Both the position numbers and the translations under genes were made by a program. Below, piece by piece: positions 3,613-51,763 of a DNA stretch of 64,000 nt. This stretch comes from a bacterium. Lineage in GTDB: Bacteria > Cyanobacteriota > Vampirovibrionia > Gastranaerophilales > JBAXKC01. Under the pieces are notes generated by a model that worked only from the letters and a program-made list of their open reading frames with translations, made no database searches and was not told where the DNA came from. The stretch lies in NCBI GenBank assembly GCA_037137535.1, contig JBAXKC010000004.1, positions 1-64,000 on the forward strand. Reading direction: 5' to 3'. Numbering within the stretch: the stretch's first letter is position 1; each line of letters starts with the position of its first letter.

Positions 3613-4679
3613 GGCGAATTCGGGCTTAAGATGCAACACATATAGAGACTTGTTGTAATTTATAAAATTTTTGATTTGGTGTTTTATACCCTAATACTTT
3701 CATAGGACGATTATTAATCCAATCTTCAACGTATTGAACTTGTTCATCTGATATTTTATCAAAGTCAGTTCCTTTTGGGAAAAATCTTCTGATTAAGGTG
3801 TTTAAATTTTCAATAGTACCTTTCTCCCAAGCGTGATAAGGCTTACAAAAGAACGATTTCACCTTCAAGTTTTCATTTACTTTTTCGTGCCAGCAAAACT
3901 CGCACCCATTGTCATAAGTTATTGTTTTAGCTATTTTAATAATGTTATTTTTATTTAATGCGTACACAATCGCATTAGACGCTTGCTCGGCAGTTTTCTG
4001 GGCAAGCTTTTTTATTTTAATCATTCTTGTAGCTCTGTCTGCAATAACAAGAAGGGCTGATTTAGAGCCTCTGCAGGAAACAACAGTATCTGCCTCAAAA
4101 TGTCCTAATTCTTCTCTTTTATTTGCTTCTATGGGTCTGAAATCAATATCTATTCTGTTTGGGATTAAAGTTCTTTTGCCTTTACGTCTTGATTGAGGTT
4201 TTCTTCCTAAGTGCTTTCTTGTTAAATACTTTGACAAATGGCTATTACCCTTGTAGATAAAGTCATATATTGCATCTTTACCTACTTTGATTGCAATATC
4301 TTCAAGCATCGTTACTGAAATTATTTCAGGCGACCAGCCAAGTTTAAGCTTTTCTATTATGTATTCTTTAACTTTAGGTTCATCAGTTTTTCTTGTTCTT
4401 CGAGTATTTAATTTATTCTTACGGATATTTTCAATTGTACTAACAGCAAAATATCGGTTTTTAACAATAACGGACGTATCTTTTTTAAATTCTCTACTTA
4501 TTGTGCTTGGACTTCTTCCTAGTTCTTTTGCTATTTTTCTTTTTGAAAAATTATGAGAACTTAAAACGGCAATCTGTTCTCTTTCTTCGGAGGTTAACTG
4601 TTTAAAACTATTTCTCACTTTGCTACTCCTTTCGCTTTCTTATTTTAGCAAAGTGTTGCATTTTATTTCAGAATTCGCC
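3613..4679 (-). mobile_element. IS30-family insertion sequence, apparently intact
   Basis: 27-bp imperfect terminal IRs (GGCGAATTC...ATGCAACAC, 22/27 match) at 3613-3639 and 4653-4679; AGA direct repeat on both flanks (3610-3612, 4680-4682); internal transposase. Confidence 0.92.
3626..4618 (-). CDS. IS30-family DDE transposase
   Basis: N-terminal HTH (IAKELGRSPSTISRE), WSPE, GHFEADT, TYDNGCEF, WEKGTIEN, NNRPMKVLGYKTP motifs; GTG start with AAGGAG RBS. Confidence 0.95.
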   Translation of the reverse strand: MRNSFKQLTSEEREQIAVLSSHNFSKRKIAKELGRSPSTISREFKKDTSVIVKNRYFAVSTIENIRKNKLNTRRTRKTDEPKVKEYIIEKLKLGWSPEIISVTMLEDIAIKVGKDAIYDFIYKGNSHLSKYLTRKHLGRKPQSRRKGKRTLIPNRIDIDFRPIEANKREELGHFEADTVVSCRGSKSALLVIADRATRMIKIKKLAQKTAEQASNAIVYALNKNNIIKIAKTITYDNGCEFCWHEKVNENLKVKSFFCKPYHAWEKGTIENLNTLIRRFFPKGTDFDKISDEQVQYVEDWINNRPMKVLGYKTPNQKFYKLQQVSICVAS

Positions 4680-21395: not shown

Positions 21396-21502
21396 TAAAA
21401 AATACTTATACTAATCCAATTAACTTTTTGATAATTTAATTACTATAAATCAAGTTTTTATGCCCTTTGCAAGAAATTAAATAAAGAATTCACACTAATC
21501 CA

Positions 21503-21631
21503 GCGATATGCTTCTTTTCTCAAGAATTATTTTGTTTTTAACAAATCAAAGAGCAAGAAAAGAAGCCTGAGCGTTCAGAGCTGAAAAGCCATCGAAATTT
21601 TCTTGTGATGAAAGAATTTAATCAGTATCGC
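21503..21631. ncRNA. Candidate multi-stem structured RNA of unknown class
   Basis: Closing stem GCGATAT/GTATCGC around an 11-bp stem and three small hairpins, one with a GAAA tetraloop, in an ORF-free gap. Confidence 0.35.
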
Positions 21632-21678
21632 AACAAGTTTAGCATGACATTTTATCAATTAATTTATTGGAGAGGCTT

Positions 21679-21710
21679 AAAAAGGTTCATGTTTTAGCAT
21701 GAACCTTTTT
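21679..21710. terminator. Bidirectional terminator
   Basis: AAAAAGGTTCATG-ttttag-CATGAACCTTTTT. Confidence 0.85.
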
Positions 21711-21731
21711 ATAATTTTATAAATTTTTCAA

Positions 21732-29385: not shown

Positions 29386-30030
29386 TTGGAAATTAAAATG
29401 GAAGACTTTGAAAAAGGGCAAAAAGTTAAAATAAAATTTAATATTTCCCCAACTCGTCCTGTTGAATTAGAATGTGCCCTGAATGTTTCCGAAGCAGACA
29501 GGCTGATTCTTGAATTTCCTCACGACAGAGCCTTTTTGAAAAGTTATATTTACGAAGGCAAGGAAATAGAAGTTTTAACCTATACGGATAAAGGCATATA
29601 CTGCTTTGATTCTGTGGTTATAGAGTCTCCGATGTCGGGTGATTTCACTATCGAATTCCCGGAAGAAAAAATAAAAGTTCAACGAAGAGAATATGTAAGA
29701 GTTCCTATAAAAATCAATATGATTCTAAGCAAAGAGCCAACGCAAATAAAAGGTGAAACTATCAACATAGGCGGTGGGGGGCTTAGATTTCTAACGCATA
29801 TGCAATTAAAAAAAGCTGATTTATGGTCATTTAACATGAGGTTGCCTCGCTCTGATGACTTTATTGAAGGAGTTGGCGAAGTTTTATACTCAAACGAGGA
29901 CGGAAAAGAATTTGTTTCAGTTATAAAATTTGTAAATATAAATGAAATAAACCGAAATAAAATAATAAGAGCCTGTTTTGAAGAAGAAGCTCACATTATA
30001 AAGAACAGAATTAACTATGAAAAACGATAA
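29386..30030 (+). CDS. PilZ-domain c-di-GMP receptor (YcgR/flagellar-brake-like)
   Basis: QRREYVR (RxxxR) and NIGGGG (D/NxSxxG-like) motifs with an N-terminal PilZN-like domain. Confidence 0.8.
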   Translation: MEIKMEDFEKGQKVKIKFNISPTRPVELECALNVSEADRLILEFPHDRAFLKSYIYEGKEIEVLTYTDKGIYCFDSVVIESPMSGDFTIEFPEEKIKVQRREYVRVPIKINMILSKEPTQIKGETINIGGGGLRFLTHMQLKKADLWSFNMRLPRSDDFIEGVGEVLYSNEDGKEFVSVIKFVNINEINRNKIIRACFEEEAHIIKNRINYEKR

Positions 30031-43711: not shown

Positions 43712-45394
43712 TTAAGCGCTTAAATTTATTGGCTTATGTGCTTCTTCAACCATTAATTCAAGTTCAACAATACCGGTATTTTGATCAACTTTTACAACTT
43801 TAAATTGAGAATTTCTAGGTAATAACAACTCACTTTCTGAAATTCCTTTTACGCCTGTTGACTCAATATCTAAAGCTTTTGCACCTTTAGGAACTTTAAT
43901 TTTCAGAGAATAACCTTGCCACTCATCACCATAGCCATTAAATGCCATAATTTCTTTTGGGTCATATGATGTTGAGGTGTATCCGTTGTCAGTATAAATC
44001 ATACCTTCCTTTAATTCATATGGATATTTATACTCAACTCCTCCAGCTTCAGGGAATACCTGTTTTTTAGCTACCCCTCTATATACAACTACATCTTGTG
44101 GACACTCTGATCGTTCAATTACTTTATCTAAATTATTAACGATATTATCTAATTGTTCTAATTTTTTTGCAGGTTGAGTTAAAATATCCTCAGCATCAAA
44201 AGCCCCTGTTTTTCTAGCATATGGATTAATATCTTGGTAATAATCACCTTTATACTTAGTCATAGCATCTAGTTCTTGTTTACTAAAGCTATCTTTATAC
44301 TGTTCTTTAAACTGTTGGTTCAAATTAGCGCGTTCCGATTTATTTAAAGGTTTATATCCATTTTGTTCACTGGAAAGATCTGAAATAAAGTCTTCTCTTC
44401 GTTTACGCATAGCCTCAGACTTAGCAATACGCTTAGCTTCATCCGCTTTTTGCTTAGCTTCGATTTCAGCCTTTTGTTTGGCTTCAATTTCTGCTTTTTG
44501 CTTAGCTTCAATTTCAGCCTTTTGTTTGGCTTCAATTTCTGCTTTTTGCTTAGCTTCGATTTCAGCCTTTTGCTTGGCTTTAATTTCTGCTTTTTGCTTA
44601 GCTTCGATTTCAGCCTTTTGCTTGGCTTCAATTTCTGCTTTTTGCTTAGCTTCGATTTCAGCCTTTTGCTTGGCTTCAACTTCTTTATTAACAGGTTTCG
44701 GATCTTCTACTTTAGTCTTTTTATTAATAAAAGGAAGTTGCGCTTTTAAATTTATCCATGCGCTACCATCTTTAAAGGCATTAAAAGATTTTGCCAAACT
44801 TGAAGGAGTTTCTTTAAAGGTTTGAATAACTGCTTCAAATGTATTCATTTTTGATACATCAGCAGCTATATTAGCTTGTTTAAGTACAGTTTTTGCGCCT
44901 GCAATAGATGGGATTAATGTAGTTGCAGCTGCTCCAATATCATAAAAGGCCTTTTCAACGTCATCGCCATCTTTTGCAGTTGCAATTTTATAAGCTGCCG
45001 TTCCCGCCTGAAAAACTCCTGTTGCAATACCTGCTGCGGCCATAAACGGAAGAATTGCCCCACCTGTTGCAACAGTTAAAGCTCCTGCGGCTGCCATCAT
45101 GCCGGCACCCATTACAAAATTTTGCGGACTACTAAACATTGAAGTAATAGGAGAAATTAAACCTTTTCCAAAATTTAACGCAGCTTCGCCGACATCAAAT
45201 TTTTTATTATTAGAAGAATTTATTTCTTCTTTAGATTCAGTATTATTTACAAAAATATCACTTGGCAGTTCTAAATTATTCATGTTAATTGTTTTTATAT
45301 TTTGCTCAGCAAAAGGGTTATAAGGCTGTGGTTGTATCACAGCCTTTTTATTAGAATTATAAGCGTTTAAAAGATTATTATTAAACGAAATCAT
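43712..45394 (-). CDS. ADP-ribosyltransferase toxin (VIP2/C2-like R-S-E class) with Ala/Gly-rich hydrophobic N-domain and repeat stalk
   Basis: Y..IN..., VYRG, YTSTS, E-S-E-LLLPRN.F catalytic motifs. Confidence 0.85.
   Translation of the reverse strand: MISFNNNLLNAYNSNKKAVIQPQPYNPFAEQNIKTINMNNLELPSDIFVNNTESKEEINSSNNKKFDVGEAALNFGKGLISPITSMFSSPQNFVMGAGMMAAAGALTVATGGAILPFMAAAGIATGVFQAGTAAYKIATAKDGDDVEKAFYDIGAAATTLIPSIAGAKTVLKQANIAADVSKMNTFEAVIQTFKETPSSLAKSFNAFKDGSAWINLKAQLPFINKKTKVEDPKPVNKEVEAKQKAEIEAKQKAEIEAKQKAEIEAKQKAEIKAKQKAEIEAKQKAEIEAKQKAEIEAKQKAEIEAKQKAEIEAKQKADEAKRIAKSEAMRKRREDFISDLSSEQNGYKPLNKSERANLNQQFKEQYKDSFSKQELDAMTKYKGDYYQDINPYARKTGAFDAEDILTQPAKKLEQLDNIVNNLDKVIERSECPQDVVVYRGVAKKQVFPEAGGVEYKYPYELKEGMIYTDNGYTSTSYDPKEIMAFNGYGDEWQGYSLKIKVPKGAKALDIESTGVKGISESELLLPRNSQFKVVKVDQNTGIVELELMVEEAHKPINLSA
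44445..44684 (-). repeat. Ten tandem 24-bp coding repeats (AEIEAKQK) arranged as a 48-bp dimer
   Basis: Alternating units gctttttgcttagcttcgatttca / gccttttgyttggcttcaatttct. Confidence 0.9.
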
Positions 45395-49598: not shown

Positions 49599-50405
49599 AT
49601 GAACAAAACTGTAGAATTTATTCAAAATCAAATTAAAGAACACAATTTCAAACCCGAAACAGCAATTATTTTAGGCTCAGGCCTTGGTGATTTTGCTGAA
49701 AAAATCAACGGTGTAAGAATAAATTTTTCTGACATTCCCGGATTTGCAGCATCTTCAGTGGCAGGACATGCAGGAAAGCTAATTATAGGGGAATTATTCG
49801 GCAAACATGTTCTTGCGATGCAAGGAAGATTTCATTTTTATGAAGGTCACTCCCTTGAAAAAGTTATCTACCCTATCAGAATAATGAAACTTCTCGGAAT
49901 TAAAAACCTTATCGTTACAAACGCAGCCGGTGGTGTAAATACAGAATATAAACCCGGTGATCTTATGGTAATTAATGACCATATTAACTTCATAGGAACA
50001 AATCCATTAATCGGCAAAAACTTTGATGAATTTGGACCTAGATTCCCCGATATGTCAAAAGCATACGCTGATAGTCTGATTGAACTTGCTAACAAATCAG
50101 GTGAAAAACTTGGTATTAAATTGCAAAACGGTGTATATGCTGCTCTTACCGGACCATCATACGAAACACCTGCTGAAATAAGAATGCTTAGACTTTTAGG
50201 AGCTGATGCCGTTGGAATGTCAACTGTTCCTGAAGTTATAGCAGCTAATCACTGCGGAATGAACGTACTGGGCATTTCCTGCATAACAAACATGGCTTGT
50301 GGCATTTTAGACCAACCTTTAAACCATGAAGAAGTTATTGAAACATCAAACATGGCAAAAGCTTCTTTCATCGGGCTAATAAGTGAAGTAATAAAAAATA
50401 TTTAA
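49599..50405 (+). CDS. punA: Purine nucleoside phosphorylase (trimeric type)
   Basis: ILGSGLG, GHAG, GRFHFYEG, TNAAGG, GPSYETPAE, VGMSTVPE. Confidence 0.93.
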   Translation: MNKTVEFIQNQIKEHNFKPETAIILGSGLGDFAEKINGVRINFSDIPGFAASSVAGHAGKLIIGELFGKHVLAMQGRFHFYEGHSLEKVIYPIRIMKLLGIKNLIVTNAAGGVNTEYKPGDLMVINDHINFIGTNPLIGKNFDEFGPRFPDMSKAYADSLIELANKSGEKLGIKLQNGVYAALTGPSYETPAEIRMLRLLGADAVGMSTVPEVIAANHCGMNVLGISCITNMACGILDQPLNHEEVIETSNMAKASFIGLISEVIKNI

Positions 50406-50433
50406 GTTTTGTAAACTTATTAATATAAAATCC

Positions 50434-50460
50434 TAAAGTTTTAAGGAGAGAGGTCGATAA
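50434..50460 (+). promoter_or_regulatory. Sigma-28 (FliA/SigD)-type promoter, copy 1
   Basis: TAAA-N15-GTCGATAA. Confidence 0.7.
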
Positions 50461-50469
50461 ATAATATAT

Positions 50470-50543
50470 AGACCAAACAAATGGTCATACCCCAACCTCC
50501 TCCCCAAAGTCTGGTAGCCGCCCAAAAAGGTGGCTTTTATTTT
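50470..50543 (+). ncRNA. Candidate C-rich small RNA, copy 1
   Basis: GACCA/TGGTC 5' hairpin, CCCCAACCTCCTCCCC single strand, AGCCGCC/GGTGGCT terminator with T-tract. Confidence 0.7.
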
Positions 50544-50594
50544 GCCTTTTTTTAGACTCGCATTAAGTTTTGTTAACAAACTAAAATAAAACCC

Positions 50595-50621
50595 TAAAGT
50601 TTTTTAAAAAACTGCCGATAA
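50595..50621 (+). promoter_or_regulatory. Sigma-28-type promoter, copy 2
   Basis: TAAAGTTT...GCCGATAA with exact TAAA-N15-GCCGATAA spacing. Confidence 0.8.
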
Positions 50622-50630
50622 ATATTACAT

Positions 50631-50704
50631 AGACCAAACAAATGGTCATACCCCAACCTCCTCCCCAAAGTCTGGTAGCCGCCCAATAAGGTGGCTTTTA
50701 TTTT
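50631..50704 (+). ncRNA. Candidate C-rich small RNA, copy 2
   Basis: As copy 1, with one loop substitution. Confidence 0.7.
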
Positions 50705-50755
50705 GCCTTTTTTTAGACTCGCATTAAGTTTTGTTAACAAACTAAAATAAAACCC

Positions 50756-50782
50756 TAAAGTTTTTTAAAAAACTGCCGATAA
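50756..50782 (+). promoter_or_regulatory. Sigma-28-type promoter, copy 3
   Basis: TAAA-N15-GCCGATAA. Confidence 0.8.
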
Positions 50783-50791
50783 ATATTACAT

Positions 50792-50865
50792 AGACCAAAC
50801 AAATGGTCATACCCCAACCTCCTCCCCAAAGTCTGGTAGCCGCCCAATAAGGTGGCTTTTATTTT
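50792..50865 (+). ncRNA. Candidate C-rich small RNA, copy 3
   Basis: Identical to copy 2. Confidence 0.7.
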
Positions 50866-51046
50866 GCGTTTTTTTATACAAATATCATGCCAAATACATA
50901 GTGATTAAACTGTTTTTTACAATATAACTACTTAAATTATAGATATAAGACAAAAAAGGATATCTTGTAAAATCATGGACAATTATTTTATACAATAATT
51001 AGAGCAACTACTAATTGTTTTTAAACCAACTAATAGGAGAAAAATA

Positions 51047-51763
51047 ATGGCATTTAAAATGGAAAAAATGACAGAAGCAGATATAGCGTACTATAACTCA
51101 TTTGAATTTAAAAACGTTGCTTTTGGCAGTATAAAATATGACCCTCCGTTATTACCTCCACCACGAAACTTTGTAGTTGAGGAGGGGGTAGGAATAAGCA
51201 CAACTGCTTGGATCGTAGATAAAGAACGCAATGCATTTGTACGAGGAGTAGGAGGTGGGGGACATGGAATGCCTGAATTTCAAGTCCTTGTATGGAACGG
51301 TGACGTAATAATATGTTCTTTTTATGAAAAATATACGAAGAATCTTAAGGAGTTTAATTTCTGGTGGATTCAAGCACCAAAGCACCTTCAGAGCGAAGAA
51401 AACAGTAAAGAAATAATAAATATGATAAAAGAAGCTCTTATTCTTGAAGGTACAGGAATTAGCATACCGGCAGGCGCTTTAAATGATCAAGATTATGCCT
51501 GGCTTTACTCTATAGAGTTTAATAATGAAAAACCTTTGACTGGGCTTGTTTCTACAAAAGAATTGAAAAAAGACGACCCTGAAATAAAAAGTAAAATAAA
51601 GCAGGTACTTGAGAAGTGTATAAATAATCCTGACGTTCCTCAAGATTTATTAGAAACTCAAAATTATTCATTAAAACCAAAAAAATTCACTTTTAATGAA
51701 ATGGGAGTAGGATTCCGCCTTAATCCTCAAGATTATAAAAATAATTATATGCTTAGGGATTAA
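51047..51763 (+). CDS. Hypothetical protein (possibly orphan immunity-like)
   Basis: 238-aa ORF with AGGAG RBS; MAF..E...EAD, W.VDKERN, W.G, IKEAL pattern. Confidence 0.6.
   Translation: MAFKMEKMTEADIAYYNSFEFKNVAFGSIKYDPPLLPPPRNFVVEEGVGISTTAWIVDKERNAFVRGVGGGGHGMPEFQVLVWNGDVIICSFYEKYTKNLKEFNFWWIQAPKHLQSEENSKEIINMIKEALILEGTGISIPAGALNDQDYAWLYSIEFNNEKPLTGLVSTKELKKDDPEIKSKIKQVLEKCINNPDVPQDLLETQNYSLKPKKFTFNEMGVGFRLNPQDYKNNYMLRD

Follow-up and report, generated by a model that had tools for sequence, protein, structure and literature searches.

A Tandem Array of Putative Small RNA Genes

The 64,000-nt stretch of DNA analyzed here (the window) comes from a bacterium of the Gastranaerophilales and carries, at 50402–50884 on the + strand, three units of 161 bp arranged head-to-tail (50402–50562, 50563–50723, and 50724–50884). 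Each has the layout of a complete transcription unit for a small RNA (sRNA). Comparisons with relatives indicate that the units represent a real, previously undescribed sRNA family of a known kind, with a sigma-28-type promoter and a C-rich, anti-Shine-Dalgarno stretch.

Tandem Repeats Finder reports a period of 161 and 3.0 copies at 50402–50876 (93% matches and 0% indels), and all three 161-bp units align without gaps. From 5′ to 3′, a unit consists of a TTAAG-N5-TTAAC repeat, TAAAGTTT, 11 nt, GCCGATAA (GTCGATAA in copy 1), ~10 nt, and the RNA, in which a 5-bp hairpin (GACCA/TGGTC) is followed by an ATA linker, CCCCAACCTCCTCCCCAAAGTCTGGT, a 7-bp G+C-rich hairpin, and TTTTATTTT. Over the first 144 positions, copies 2 and 3 are identical. 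Between copies 1 and 2 there are 18 differences, of which 2 are among the 93 positions in promoter boxes and RNA versus 16 among the 68 positions elsewhere (Fisher p = 2e-5), and the sole difference within the RNA is in the terminator loop of copy 1.

Promoters of copies 2 (50595–50621) and 3 (50756–50782) read TAAAGTTT-N11-GCCGATAA. That of copy 1 (50434–50460) has TAAAGTTT at 50434–50441, an 11-nt spacer that has diverged from those of the other copies, and GTCGATAA at 50453–50460. The Escherichia coli sigma-28 consensus is TAAAGTTT-n11-GCCGATAA (PMC2859248), and relative to this consensus, which is specifically that of E. coli, copies 2 and 3 match at 16 of 16 positions and copy 1 at 15 of 16. 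The CGATwt sequence is likewise a recognized signature of sigma-28 -10 boxes in Campylobacter (PMC4626219). Copies 2 and 3 carry the pattern TAAA-N15-GCCGATAA exactly, and copy 1 carries it with a single mismatch (GTCGATAA). When up to one mismatch is allowed, the pattern has four matches in the window versus 0.52 expected, a number reached in 0 of 100 shuffles, and three of the four are the promoters of the array.

The predicted RNAs are located at 50468–50544 (copy 1, with ends uncertain by a few nt; 5′ hairpin 50471–50486, a 16-mer of the unpaired C-rich stretch 50490–50505, terminator stem 50516–50535), 50629–50705 (copy 2; 50632–50647, 50651–50666, and 50677–50696, respectively), and 50790–50866 (copy 3; 50793–50808, 50812–50827, and 50838–50857), all on the + strand and each with a U-tract after the terminator stem. 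The 77-nt stretch that was folded begins 8 nt past the -10 box and forms the GACCA/UGGUC hairpin, an unpaired CCCCAACCUCCUCCCC, and the AGCCGCC/GGUGGCU hairpin followed by the U-tract, with an energy of -19.9 kcal/mol (z = -2.7 and -3.1). The whole unpaired stretch is ~26–29 nt and includes CCCCAACCUCCUCCCC(A)AAGUC. An independent terminator scan recovered the three + strand terminators of the array (four terminator-like sites in the region versus 0.5 expected). With its own promoter and an intrinsic terminator, the window RNA is predicted to be a separate gene. This free-standing layout of promoter and Rho-independent terminator is also that of 32 related loci described below.

These results bear out in full what the initial annotation of this DNA observed in the sequence: the exact period of three units (repeat finding and ungapped alignment), a copy 1 spacer that diverged while boxes and RNA core were kept (2/93 versus 16/68), TAAA-N15 boxes of sigma-28 type (16/16 and 15/16 relative to the E. 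coli consensus), and an RNA with a 5′ hairpin, unpaired CCCCAACCUCCUCCCC, and terminator (fold and terminator scan).

An RNA Family with Covarying Hairpins

Relatives were sought in a genome-wide scan with a pattern consisting of the 16-mer, N15–45, and TTTT; promoter and hairpins were left out of the pattern on purpose. The scan yielded 95 loci (referred to by L numbers). Of these, 32 loci in 30 assemblies hold the same RNA: after the 16-mer come (C)AAGT(C/T), then a hairpin and a U-tract. The other 63 loci are unrelated chance matches or other repeats. A hairpin also precedes the 16-mer in all family loci except L071, which is cut by the end of its contig, and L067, an outlier. A covariance model made from the two distinct window copies, with the structure supplied (R1), places the family loci at the top of its ranking. 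A model rebuilt from the family (R2) scores the 32 loci at 45–74 bits and the three window copies at 80 bits, with all else at or below 39 bits. R1, based on window copies only, and R2 single out the identical 32 loci. The RNA of copy 1 has covariance-model matches at 113.9 and 80.5 bits.

Both hairpins fold in all members but L067, and the 5′ hairpin ends 0–6 nt before the 16-mer. Alignment of the family with MAFFT and folding with RNAalifold misaligned the 5′ arms and gave no hairpin or a wrong one, and realignment to the covariance model was used instead (32 matches, 30 distinct rows). In that alignment, 95.2% of 315 pair cells are standard pairs versus 62.5 ± 1.8 in shuffles, with 0 of 500 shuffles as high; the alignment is fitted to a structure model and pairing is therefore biased upward, but the margin is large. 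Compensatory changes on both sides are present in 12 of 12 pairs (96 cells) and in both helices, and pairing falls to 14–43% when the 3′ partner is slid by 1–3 columns. Among members, the 5′ hairpin varies between GACCAAACAAATGGTC, GACCGAAAGGTC, GTGAGCGAAAGCTCAC, and AATAAG...CTTATT, and the terminator between AGCCGCC/GGCGGCT and GCTACCG/CGGTAGC. The copy of Vampirovibrio chlorellavorus has a fold z of -6.2. This pattern of substitution argues that the family is a structured RNA. The gene anatomy of the window recurs in the 30 other assemblies, with promoter, hairpins, and unpaired stretch conserved and with the hairpins covarying.

Assemblies with a family member are mostly labeled as relatives of the window bacterium. 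Fifteen of 30 are labeled Vampirovibrio, Vampirovibrionales, or Vampirovibrionaceae, including V. chlorellavorus NCIMB 11383 (L034), five are Candidatus Gastranaerophilales, one is Ca. Adamsella avium (Cyanobacteriota/Melainabacteria group), one is Melainabacteria, and three are unspecified cyanobacteria. The remaining five carry other labels (filamentous cyanobacterial families, two; "bacterium," one; Gammaproteobacteria, two), and their RNAs are of Vampirovibrionales or Gastranaerophilales type, except for the outlier L067. The window RNA groups with the Gastranaerophilales type, which has a GGTCATA linker and an AGCCGCC-type terminator. No locus in the scan is identical to the window RNA, so the window's own species appears to be absent from the scanned collection.

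The triplication is found in the window genome only. One family locus is present in 28 of 30 assemblies and two are present in each of the other two (L005 and L011; L071 and L088). The scan covered whole genomes and would therefore have picked up any further copy that has this 16-mer close to a T-run. Five of 32 loci (L005, L054, L064, L071, and L088) are, however, within 170 nt of a contig end, as fits collapsed or broken tandem or dispersed repeats, and copy numbers in metagenome-assembled genomes (MAGs) from short reads may thus be underestimates. In the window genome, three gene copies would raise the dose of the sRNA.

No Rfam family matched the whole window at gathering thresholds. A permissive scan (E <= 10) of 50300–51100 gave 12 weak matches, all far under thresholds and none relevant, and a permissive scan (E <= 1) of 13 loci, 11 of them of the family, gave none. 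A scan of the window for tRNA and tmRNA found none. Searches of the literature on small RNA in Melainabacteria and on noncoding RNA in Vampirovibrio found no description of this RNA. The initial annotation had proposed a multicopy sRNA with a sigma-28-type promoter, plausibly undescribed in this lineage, and had named Rfam and a search for the RNA core among relatives as checks. Its proposal holds up well: no Rfam family matches at the window or the 13 loci; the literature searched is silent; the core is found at 32 loci in 30 assemblies with covarying hairpins; and the scores of at least 45 bits and the covarying helices point to a conserved gene with a structured RNA rather than a chance repeat. 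Conserved gene, covarying helices, and conserved promoter together lend comparative support to the proposed sRNA.

Two other elements resemble the family. Locus L067, from a MAG labeled Gammaproteobacteria, has a second, divergent sRNA-like element at 2302–2371, 300 nt downstream of the family member, with a ACCUCCUC core, an unpaired CUACCUCCUCAUAGAC, and a terminator of its own (R2 score of 39.2 bits). In six species of Nostoc (L032, L033, L047, L070, L074, and L080; e.g., L047 at 1976–2054), the identical 16-mer is unpaired between a TTGTCA...TGACAA hairpin and a 3′ stem without a U-tract (22.6–35 bits with R2). The Nostoc element is upstream of a gene for a 23S rRNA-intervening-sequence protein and a tyrosine recombinase gene and has no Rfam match.

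Promoter Conservation and a Putative Flagellar Link

The promoter motif was absent from both the search pattern and the family selection. It was counted from 90 to 15 nt upstream of the 16-mer in 31 loci, L071 being cut by the contig end and not countable. Of these 31 loci, 20 have a motif of medium stringency (T[AC]AAG-N14/15-NNCGATA), versus one match in 205 kb of the same loci (~5e-6/nt); nonfamily loci have two matches in 404 kb. With a relaxed motif (CGA[TA]), the count is 28 of 31 loci versus nine matches in the 205-kb background (~4e-5/nt). Across loci, the -10 box ends ~7–13 nt before the hairpin and the sequence of the spacer varies. Boxes differ between subclades, with TCAAGTTT/GGCGATAT in V. 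chlorellavorus and its kin and TAAAGAAA-N12-(T/G)(C/T)CGAA(T/A)A in L009, L064, and L088. By these counts, the sigma-28-type promoter itself is conserved at a fixed distance upstream of the RNA.

What is known of flagella in these organisms is consistent with such a promoter. V. chlorellavorus, the source of L034, is reported to swim by means of a polar flagellum and to possess all flagellar genes, and a sigma-28 SigD/FliA/WhiG gene is listed in supplementary file 2 of the same report (PMC4451040). Flagella are reported in some Gastranaerophilales and were inferred to be ancestral (PMC4040986). In L020 and L039, FliD genes are within 2 kb of the RNA. The window has a PilZ protein at 29386–30030 with a weak match to the YcgR N-terminal domain, as the initial annotation had it when it pointed to a gene resembling a flagellar brake. 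A sigma-factor fragment beside the sRNA in L090 was considered and set aside, as it is RpoD-like and not FliA. Sigma-28-like motifs elsewhere in the family loci mark no recognizable genes and, by eye, are mostly in coding sequence.

Upstream of the -35 box is a direct repeat, TTAAG-N5-TTAAC, at 50563–50577 and 50724–50738 on the + strand; the version in copy 1 is TTAAG-N5-TAAAC (50402–50416). It is 10-bp periodic and its center is ~59 nt before the presumed start. Repeats placed alike, ~13–20 nt before the -35 box, are present in relatives (L005, L011, L059, and Vampirovibrionales), with TTAAG-N5-TTAAG in L011 and TTACA-N5-(G)TTACAA(G) at a comparable place in at least 11 Vampirovibrionales loci. 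The repeat may be a binding site for a regulator; sigma-28 promoters activated by CRP provide a precedent for a regulator upstream of such a promoter (PMC2859248).

Other observations concern the promoter region. In copies 2 and 3, the promoter spacer reads as a perfect 16-nt palindrome, AGTTTTTTAAAAAACT (50598–50613 and 50759–50774), that is lost in copy 1, and the spacers in L005 and L011 are near-palindromic. A blastn search of plasmids and phages with the unit returned a single match, of 36 nt and 89% identity, between the promoter part (50587–50622) and an unannotated spot of a Legionella adelaidensis plasmid (NZ_LR134418.1, 75541–75576), which may merely be another sigma-28-type promoter. 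Within the window, a further sigma-28-like match, TAAAGAAT-N11-CAGCGATA, is in an intergenic gap at 21482–21712 on the + strand. It is followed by ~200 nt with a long hairpin and ends in a terminator-like hairpin at 21685–21712, and this element is possibly another small transcript.

Predicted Function and Targets

We consider it probable, though some way from assured, that the 161-bp units are independent genes for a trans-acting sRNA of ~75 nt that is driven by sigma-28 and pairs at ribosome-binding sites. RNA polymerase with a sigma-28-family factor (FliA/SigD/WhiG type) would start transcription ~7–9 nt after GCCGATAA and stop at the intrinsic terminator, releasing a ~75-nt RNA composed of the 5′ hairpin, the unpaired stretch, and the terminator hairpin. 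The unpaired C-rich stretch would base-pair to G-rich ribosome-binding sites (GGAGG with G runs on either side), denying ribosomes access to target messages while the sigma-28 (late flagellar) program is on. We infer from the sequence that the RNA is transcribed, that sigma-28 is the factor used, and that ribosome-binding sites of particular messages are hit.

The unpaired stretch contains ACCUCCU, which we take to be the letters of the anti-Shine-Dalgarno tail of 16S rRNA, and would therefore be expected to pair with G-rich ribosome-binding sites. Its ACCUCCU is flanked by C runs, and the perfect partner is GGGGAGGAGGUUGGGG. A Shine-Dalgarno core (GGAG, GAGG, or AGGA) is upstream of 23 of 54 open reading frames (ORFs) in the window versus 7.5% of random 17-mers. 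Because ORFs of the window use Shine-Dalgarno sites and the RNA has anti-Shine-Dalgarno letters, occlusion is the most economical mechanism, and the RNA probably represses translation by occluding G-rich ribosome-binding sites.

Several observations weigh against this reading. The 16-mer was fixed by the search and AAGT by the selection rule, and conservation of both is thus imposed by design; the upward bias in the pair counts given above also belongs here. No gene for sigma-28 or for any other sigma factor is within the 64-kb window. Three of 31 loci (L001, L004, and L052) do not have even the relaxed promoter motif, and the strict motif (TAAA-N15-GCCGATA) is in only 5 of 31 loci (none in the 205-kb background). 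Among 148 translation-initiation regions from the window and ~125 kb of family loci, none stands out as a target (best of -20.9 and mean of -7.9 kcal/mol). The best complementary sites in the window are within a coding frame. Lastly, pairing with one target would need less than the conserved unpaired stretch, which exceeds 20 nt.

Two of the three strongest non-self duplexes of the unpaired stretch in the window are inside the orphan ORF that follows the array, at 51159–51191 (-27.0 kcal/mol) and 51244–51261 (-24.2 kcal/mol), relative to a background across all 40-nt stretches of the window with a mean of -6.6 and a standard deviation of 3.5. This complementarity is suggestive but post hoc and without support from conservation; the ORF may be a target, or the match may be coincidental. 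A gene conserved downstream of the RNA in Vampirovibrionales has only moderate complementarity at its start regions (-9 to -21 kcal/mol). The idea that the downstream ORF contains an inverted, degenerate copy of the sRNA was rejected, as its alignment score of 34 compares with a null maximum of 35 across ~3000 windows and the repeat finder was unconvincing.

The lack of an outstanding target, in both the window duplex scan and the 148 initiation regions, is in keeping with an RNA that is real and driven by sigma-28 but acts as a decoy and not on specific targets. It would then mimic the 3′ tail of 16S rRNA, or else a site bound by a protein, and titrate away strong Shine-Dalgarno sequences, a G-rich RNA, or a protein that binds RNA, with copy number setting the stoichiometry. 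That the entire unpaired stretch is unchanged in 32 loci while the hairpins change, that ACCUCCU is presumably identical to the 16S tail, and that dosage is raised by triplication here and by two loci in each of two further assemblies are all consistent with a decoy. But the apparent invariance was partly imposed by the search, the target screen spanned only ~190 kb from these organisms, and C-rich sRNAs that are known hit specific messages, LhrC being an example (PMC4132741). We therefore regard a decoy as a doubtful alternative, yet the best of those considered.

Another possibility is that the boxes are read by sigma-70 or by some alternative factor other than sigma-28, which would untie the RNA from the flagellar program. 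Copies 2 and 3 have a weak sigma-70-like element (TTAACA-16-TAAAGT, 9 of 12 positions) overlapping their -35 box, boxes deviate in many members from Vampirovibrionales (TCAAGTTT, GGCGATAT, TCCGATAC, and ..CGAA..), and the conserved upstream repeat suggests extra control. Conversely, copies 2 and 3 match the sigma-28 consensus at every position, and the core shared across the family, T(A/C)AAG with CGAT or CGAA, is at sigma-28 spacing. In Vampirovibrionales, the would-be sigma-70 -10 box, TCAAGT, does not have an A at position 2 and, by eye, is spaced by ~15 from the upstream TTACAA, so that the sigma-70 reading does not carry over to that group. Use of a different factor is thus unlikely, and sigma-28 is the factor we favor.

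Comparison with Known Small RNAs

Among the known sRNAs closest to the proposed one are CjNC1 and CjNC4 of Campylobacter jejuni (CJnc10 and CJnc170, the latter also named FlmR), which are paralogous and depend on sigma-28 (PMC4626219, PMC11187230). They too are short, have their own sigma-28 promoters (-10 CGATwt), end in a terminator hairpin, and are present in more than one copy per genome (PMC4626219), and they have a conserved unpaired region, with 5′ untranslated regions (UTRs) as its predicted pairing partners, and a tie to the flagellar hierarchy (PMC4626219, PMC11187230). Compared by description, they differ in being from another phylum, in being less than 50 nt, and in that the parts of those reports that concern them describe no 5′ hairpin. 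Their dependence on sigma-28 was demonstrated with a fliA mutant, whereas that of the window RNA is predicted from sequence. In E. coli, sRNAs under sigma-28 control (UhpU, MotR, FliX, and FlgO) adjust flagellar synthesis, and some of them pair inside coding sequences (PMC10578931). These share control of the sigma-28 type with the window RNA, but they are described as derived from UTRs of mRNAs and as working with Hfq, whereas the window RNA has the layout of a free-standing gene and the Rfam scan found no similarity.

Multicopy sRNAs with C-rich sites are also known from Firmicutes, where C/U-rich unpaired sites of LhrC1–5 bind the ribosome-binding region and block translation (PMC4132741). 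Several gene copies and C/U-rich unpaired sites used at targets are features that LhrC1–5 and the RoxS/RsaE type have in common with the window RNA. In contrast, the LhrC and RoxS types are described as being under two-component or redox control and as having several short, redundant C-rich sites instead of one long stretch, and they are unrelated in sequence to the window RNA (no Rfam match).

From photosynthetic cyanobacteria, the sister lineage, Yfr1 is an RNA of 54–69 nt with two stem-loops around an ultraconserved C/U-rich unpaired motif (PMC2190773). Two stem-loops with a single-stranded stretch between them, a similar size, and a CUCCUC core are common to Yfr1 and the window RNA. Yet the Yfr1 signature, ACUCCUCACAC, is absent from the latter, which reads AACCUCCUCCCCAA(A)GUC and shares only CUCCUC; the unpaired stretch is ~26–29 nt in the window family versus the 16–20 given for Yfr1; the window family has a sigma-28-type promoter; and none of the Rfam models matches the window region or the 13 loci scanned, that of Yfr1 included if Rfam has one. 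We think it a long shot that the RNA is a bulk mimic of the 16S tail or shares ancestry with Yfr1, the latter idea resting on the same architecture and the shared CUCCUC core. If it is a mimic, the tandem copies would serve its bulk production, the strongest Shine-Dalgarno sequences would be soaked up when sigma-28 is active and translation would be reprogrammed genome-wide in the motile phase. If it shares ancestry with Yfr1, the sRNA would be older than the split between photosynthetic and nonphotosynthetic Cyanobacteriota.

The family, read as sigma-28-driven sRNAs that pair at ribosome-binding sites, would provide a first, strongly conserved sRNA candidate for Vampirovibrionia (Melainabacteria), the nonphotosynthetic sister group of cyanobacteria, whose members include commensals of the gut and an algal predator, V. 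chlorellavorus. Its putative regulatory input is clear (the late flagellar sigma factor), it has a defined sequence to mutate, and because V. chlorellavorus can be grown in co-culture, the predictions are directly testable. It would also extend the link between sigma-28 and small RNAs, known from E. coli and Campylobacter, to a distant phylum, suggesting that post-transcriptional feedback on motility arose repeatedly. The covariance model is ready for use in annotating these mostly uncultured genomes.

Neighboring Genes and Genomic Context

The array is in low-G+C (~32%) chromosomal DNA with housekeeping genes, among them those for ATP synthase, a Mur ligase, a penicillin-binding protein, MutS, and UvrD. 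Directly upstream is a gene of the purine/uridine phosphorylase family (49599–50405, + strand; Pfam PNP_UDP_1), and a gene of that family is within ~2 kb of the sRNA in seven Vampirovibrionales loci (tblastn; L010, L052, L040, L034, L019, L013, and L015). Directly downstream is the orphan ORF, of 238 codons with a good ribosome-binding site (51047–51763, + strand), and beyond it a convergent UvrD/PcrA gene. The orphan ORF has no Pfam or NCBIfam family, no tblastn match in the loci, and no homolog at E <= 0.001 among proteins of 130–417 residues in a collection of 5.8 billion proteins.

In Vampirovibrionales, the gene downstream of the sRNA and on the same strand encodes a Cys-rich, zinc-ribbon-like protein of 150–190 residues (CPDCGY...CRCRTCGSKR...YCQHCG) that has no Pfam family (L052, L040, L034, L017, L010, L019, L028, L013, and L015; e.g., L034 at 2192–2710). 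A ComEA-like HHH_3 gene is nearby, accompanied in some loci by ComEC, YGGT, and a PNP-family gene.

Under a further alternative, the RNA would act in cis, as a leader or attenuator for the gene that follows, and would not be a free sRNA. The Cys-rich gene is on the same strand after the RNA in nine loci, starting 143–250 nt after the 16-mer in seven of them and ~650–690 nt after it in L013 and L015, and in the window an ORF also follows the array. But every unit has a strong terminator, followed in the array by another complete unit with its own promoter. At loci of Gastranaerophilales type, the gene that comes next is unrelated or is encoded on the other strand (L005 and L020), and the downstream genes of the two groups are not homologous. 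The downstream gene in Vampirovibrionales also has, by eye, its own TATAAT-like sequences. A leader is accordingly quite improbable, and a free-standing sRNA gene is preferred.

Even less credible is that the array has no function, having arisen by neutral duplication, in tandem, of a terminator region between genes or as an artefact of assembly. Identity of copies 2 and 3 across their first 144 positions and the tendency of short-read assemblies to miscount tandem repeats would be in keeping with it, but the unit recurs in 30 other assemblies, where its helices covary and its promoter is conserved, and the 18 differences of copy 1 make at least two copies real. For the gene itself this explanation is excluded, and it applies at most to the exact copy number.

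The least credible alternative, an arrangement like that of type I toxin–antitoxin loci in which the minus strand encodes a small hydrophobic peptide behind GGAGGAGG-N8-ATG, the mirror of the C-rich stretch, and the + strand RNA is the antidote, draws on the minus strand of copies 2 and 3, where a perfect ribosome-binding site precedes a hydrophobic frame of 22 codons, and on a tandem multicopy layout that we take to be typical of such loci, but the frame is just 15 codons in copy 1, ranges from 7 to 43 codons in 13 copies from 11 sources of Gastranaerophilales type with no relatedness after the first two residues, and has no ATG at that place in Vampirovibrionales members, and the minus strand is without a terminator and its RNA is not unusually stable (z = -1.3). 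The small ORF opposite the RNA is not conserved and the idea of an antisense peptide or type I toxin was rejected.

Two further genes of the window have features of their own. A protein of 560 residues (43712–45394, - strand) has a trimerization stretch like that of the T4 gp5 C-terminus (below cut-off) and a C-terminal ADP-ribosyltransferase exoenzyme domain, and looks like a toxin-type effector; a 36%-identical domain adjoins the sRNA in L071 (86–907). A transposase with HTH_38 and integrase-core (rve) domains, presumably of the IS30 type, is encoded at 3626–4618 on the - strand.

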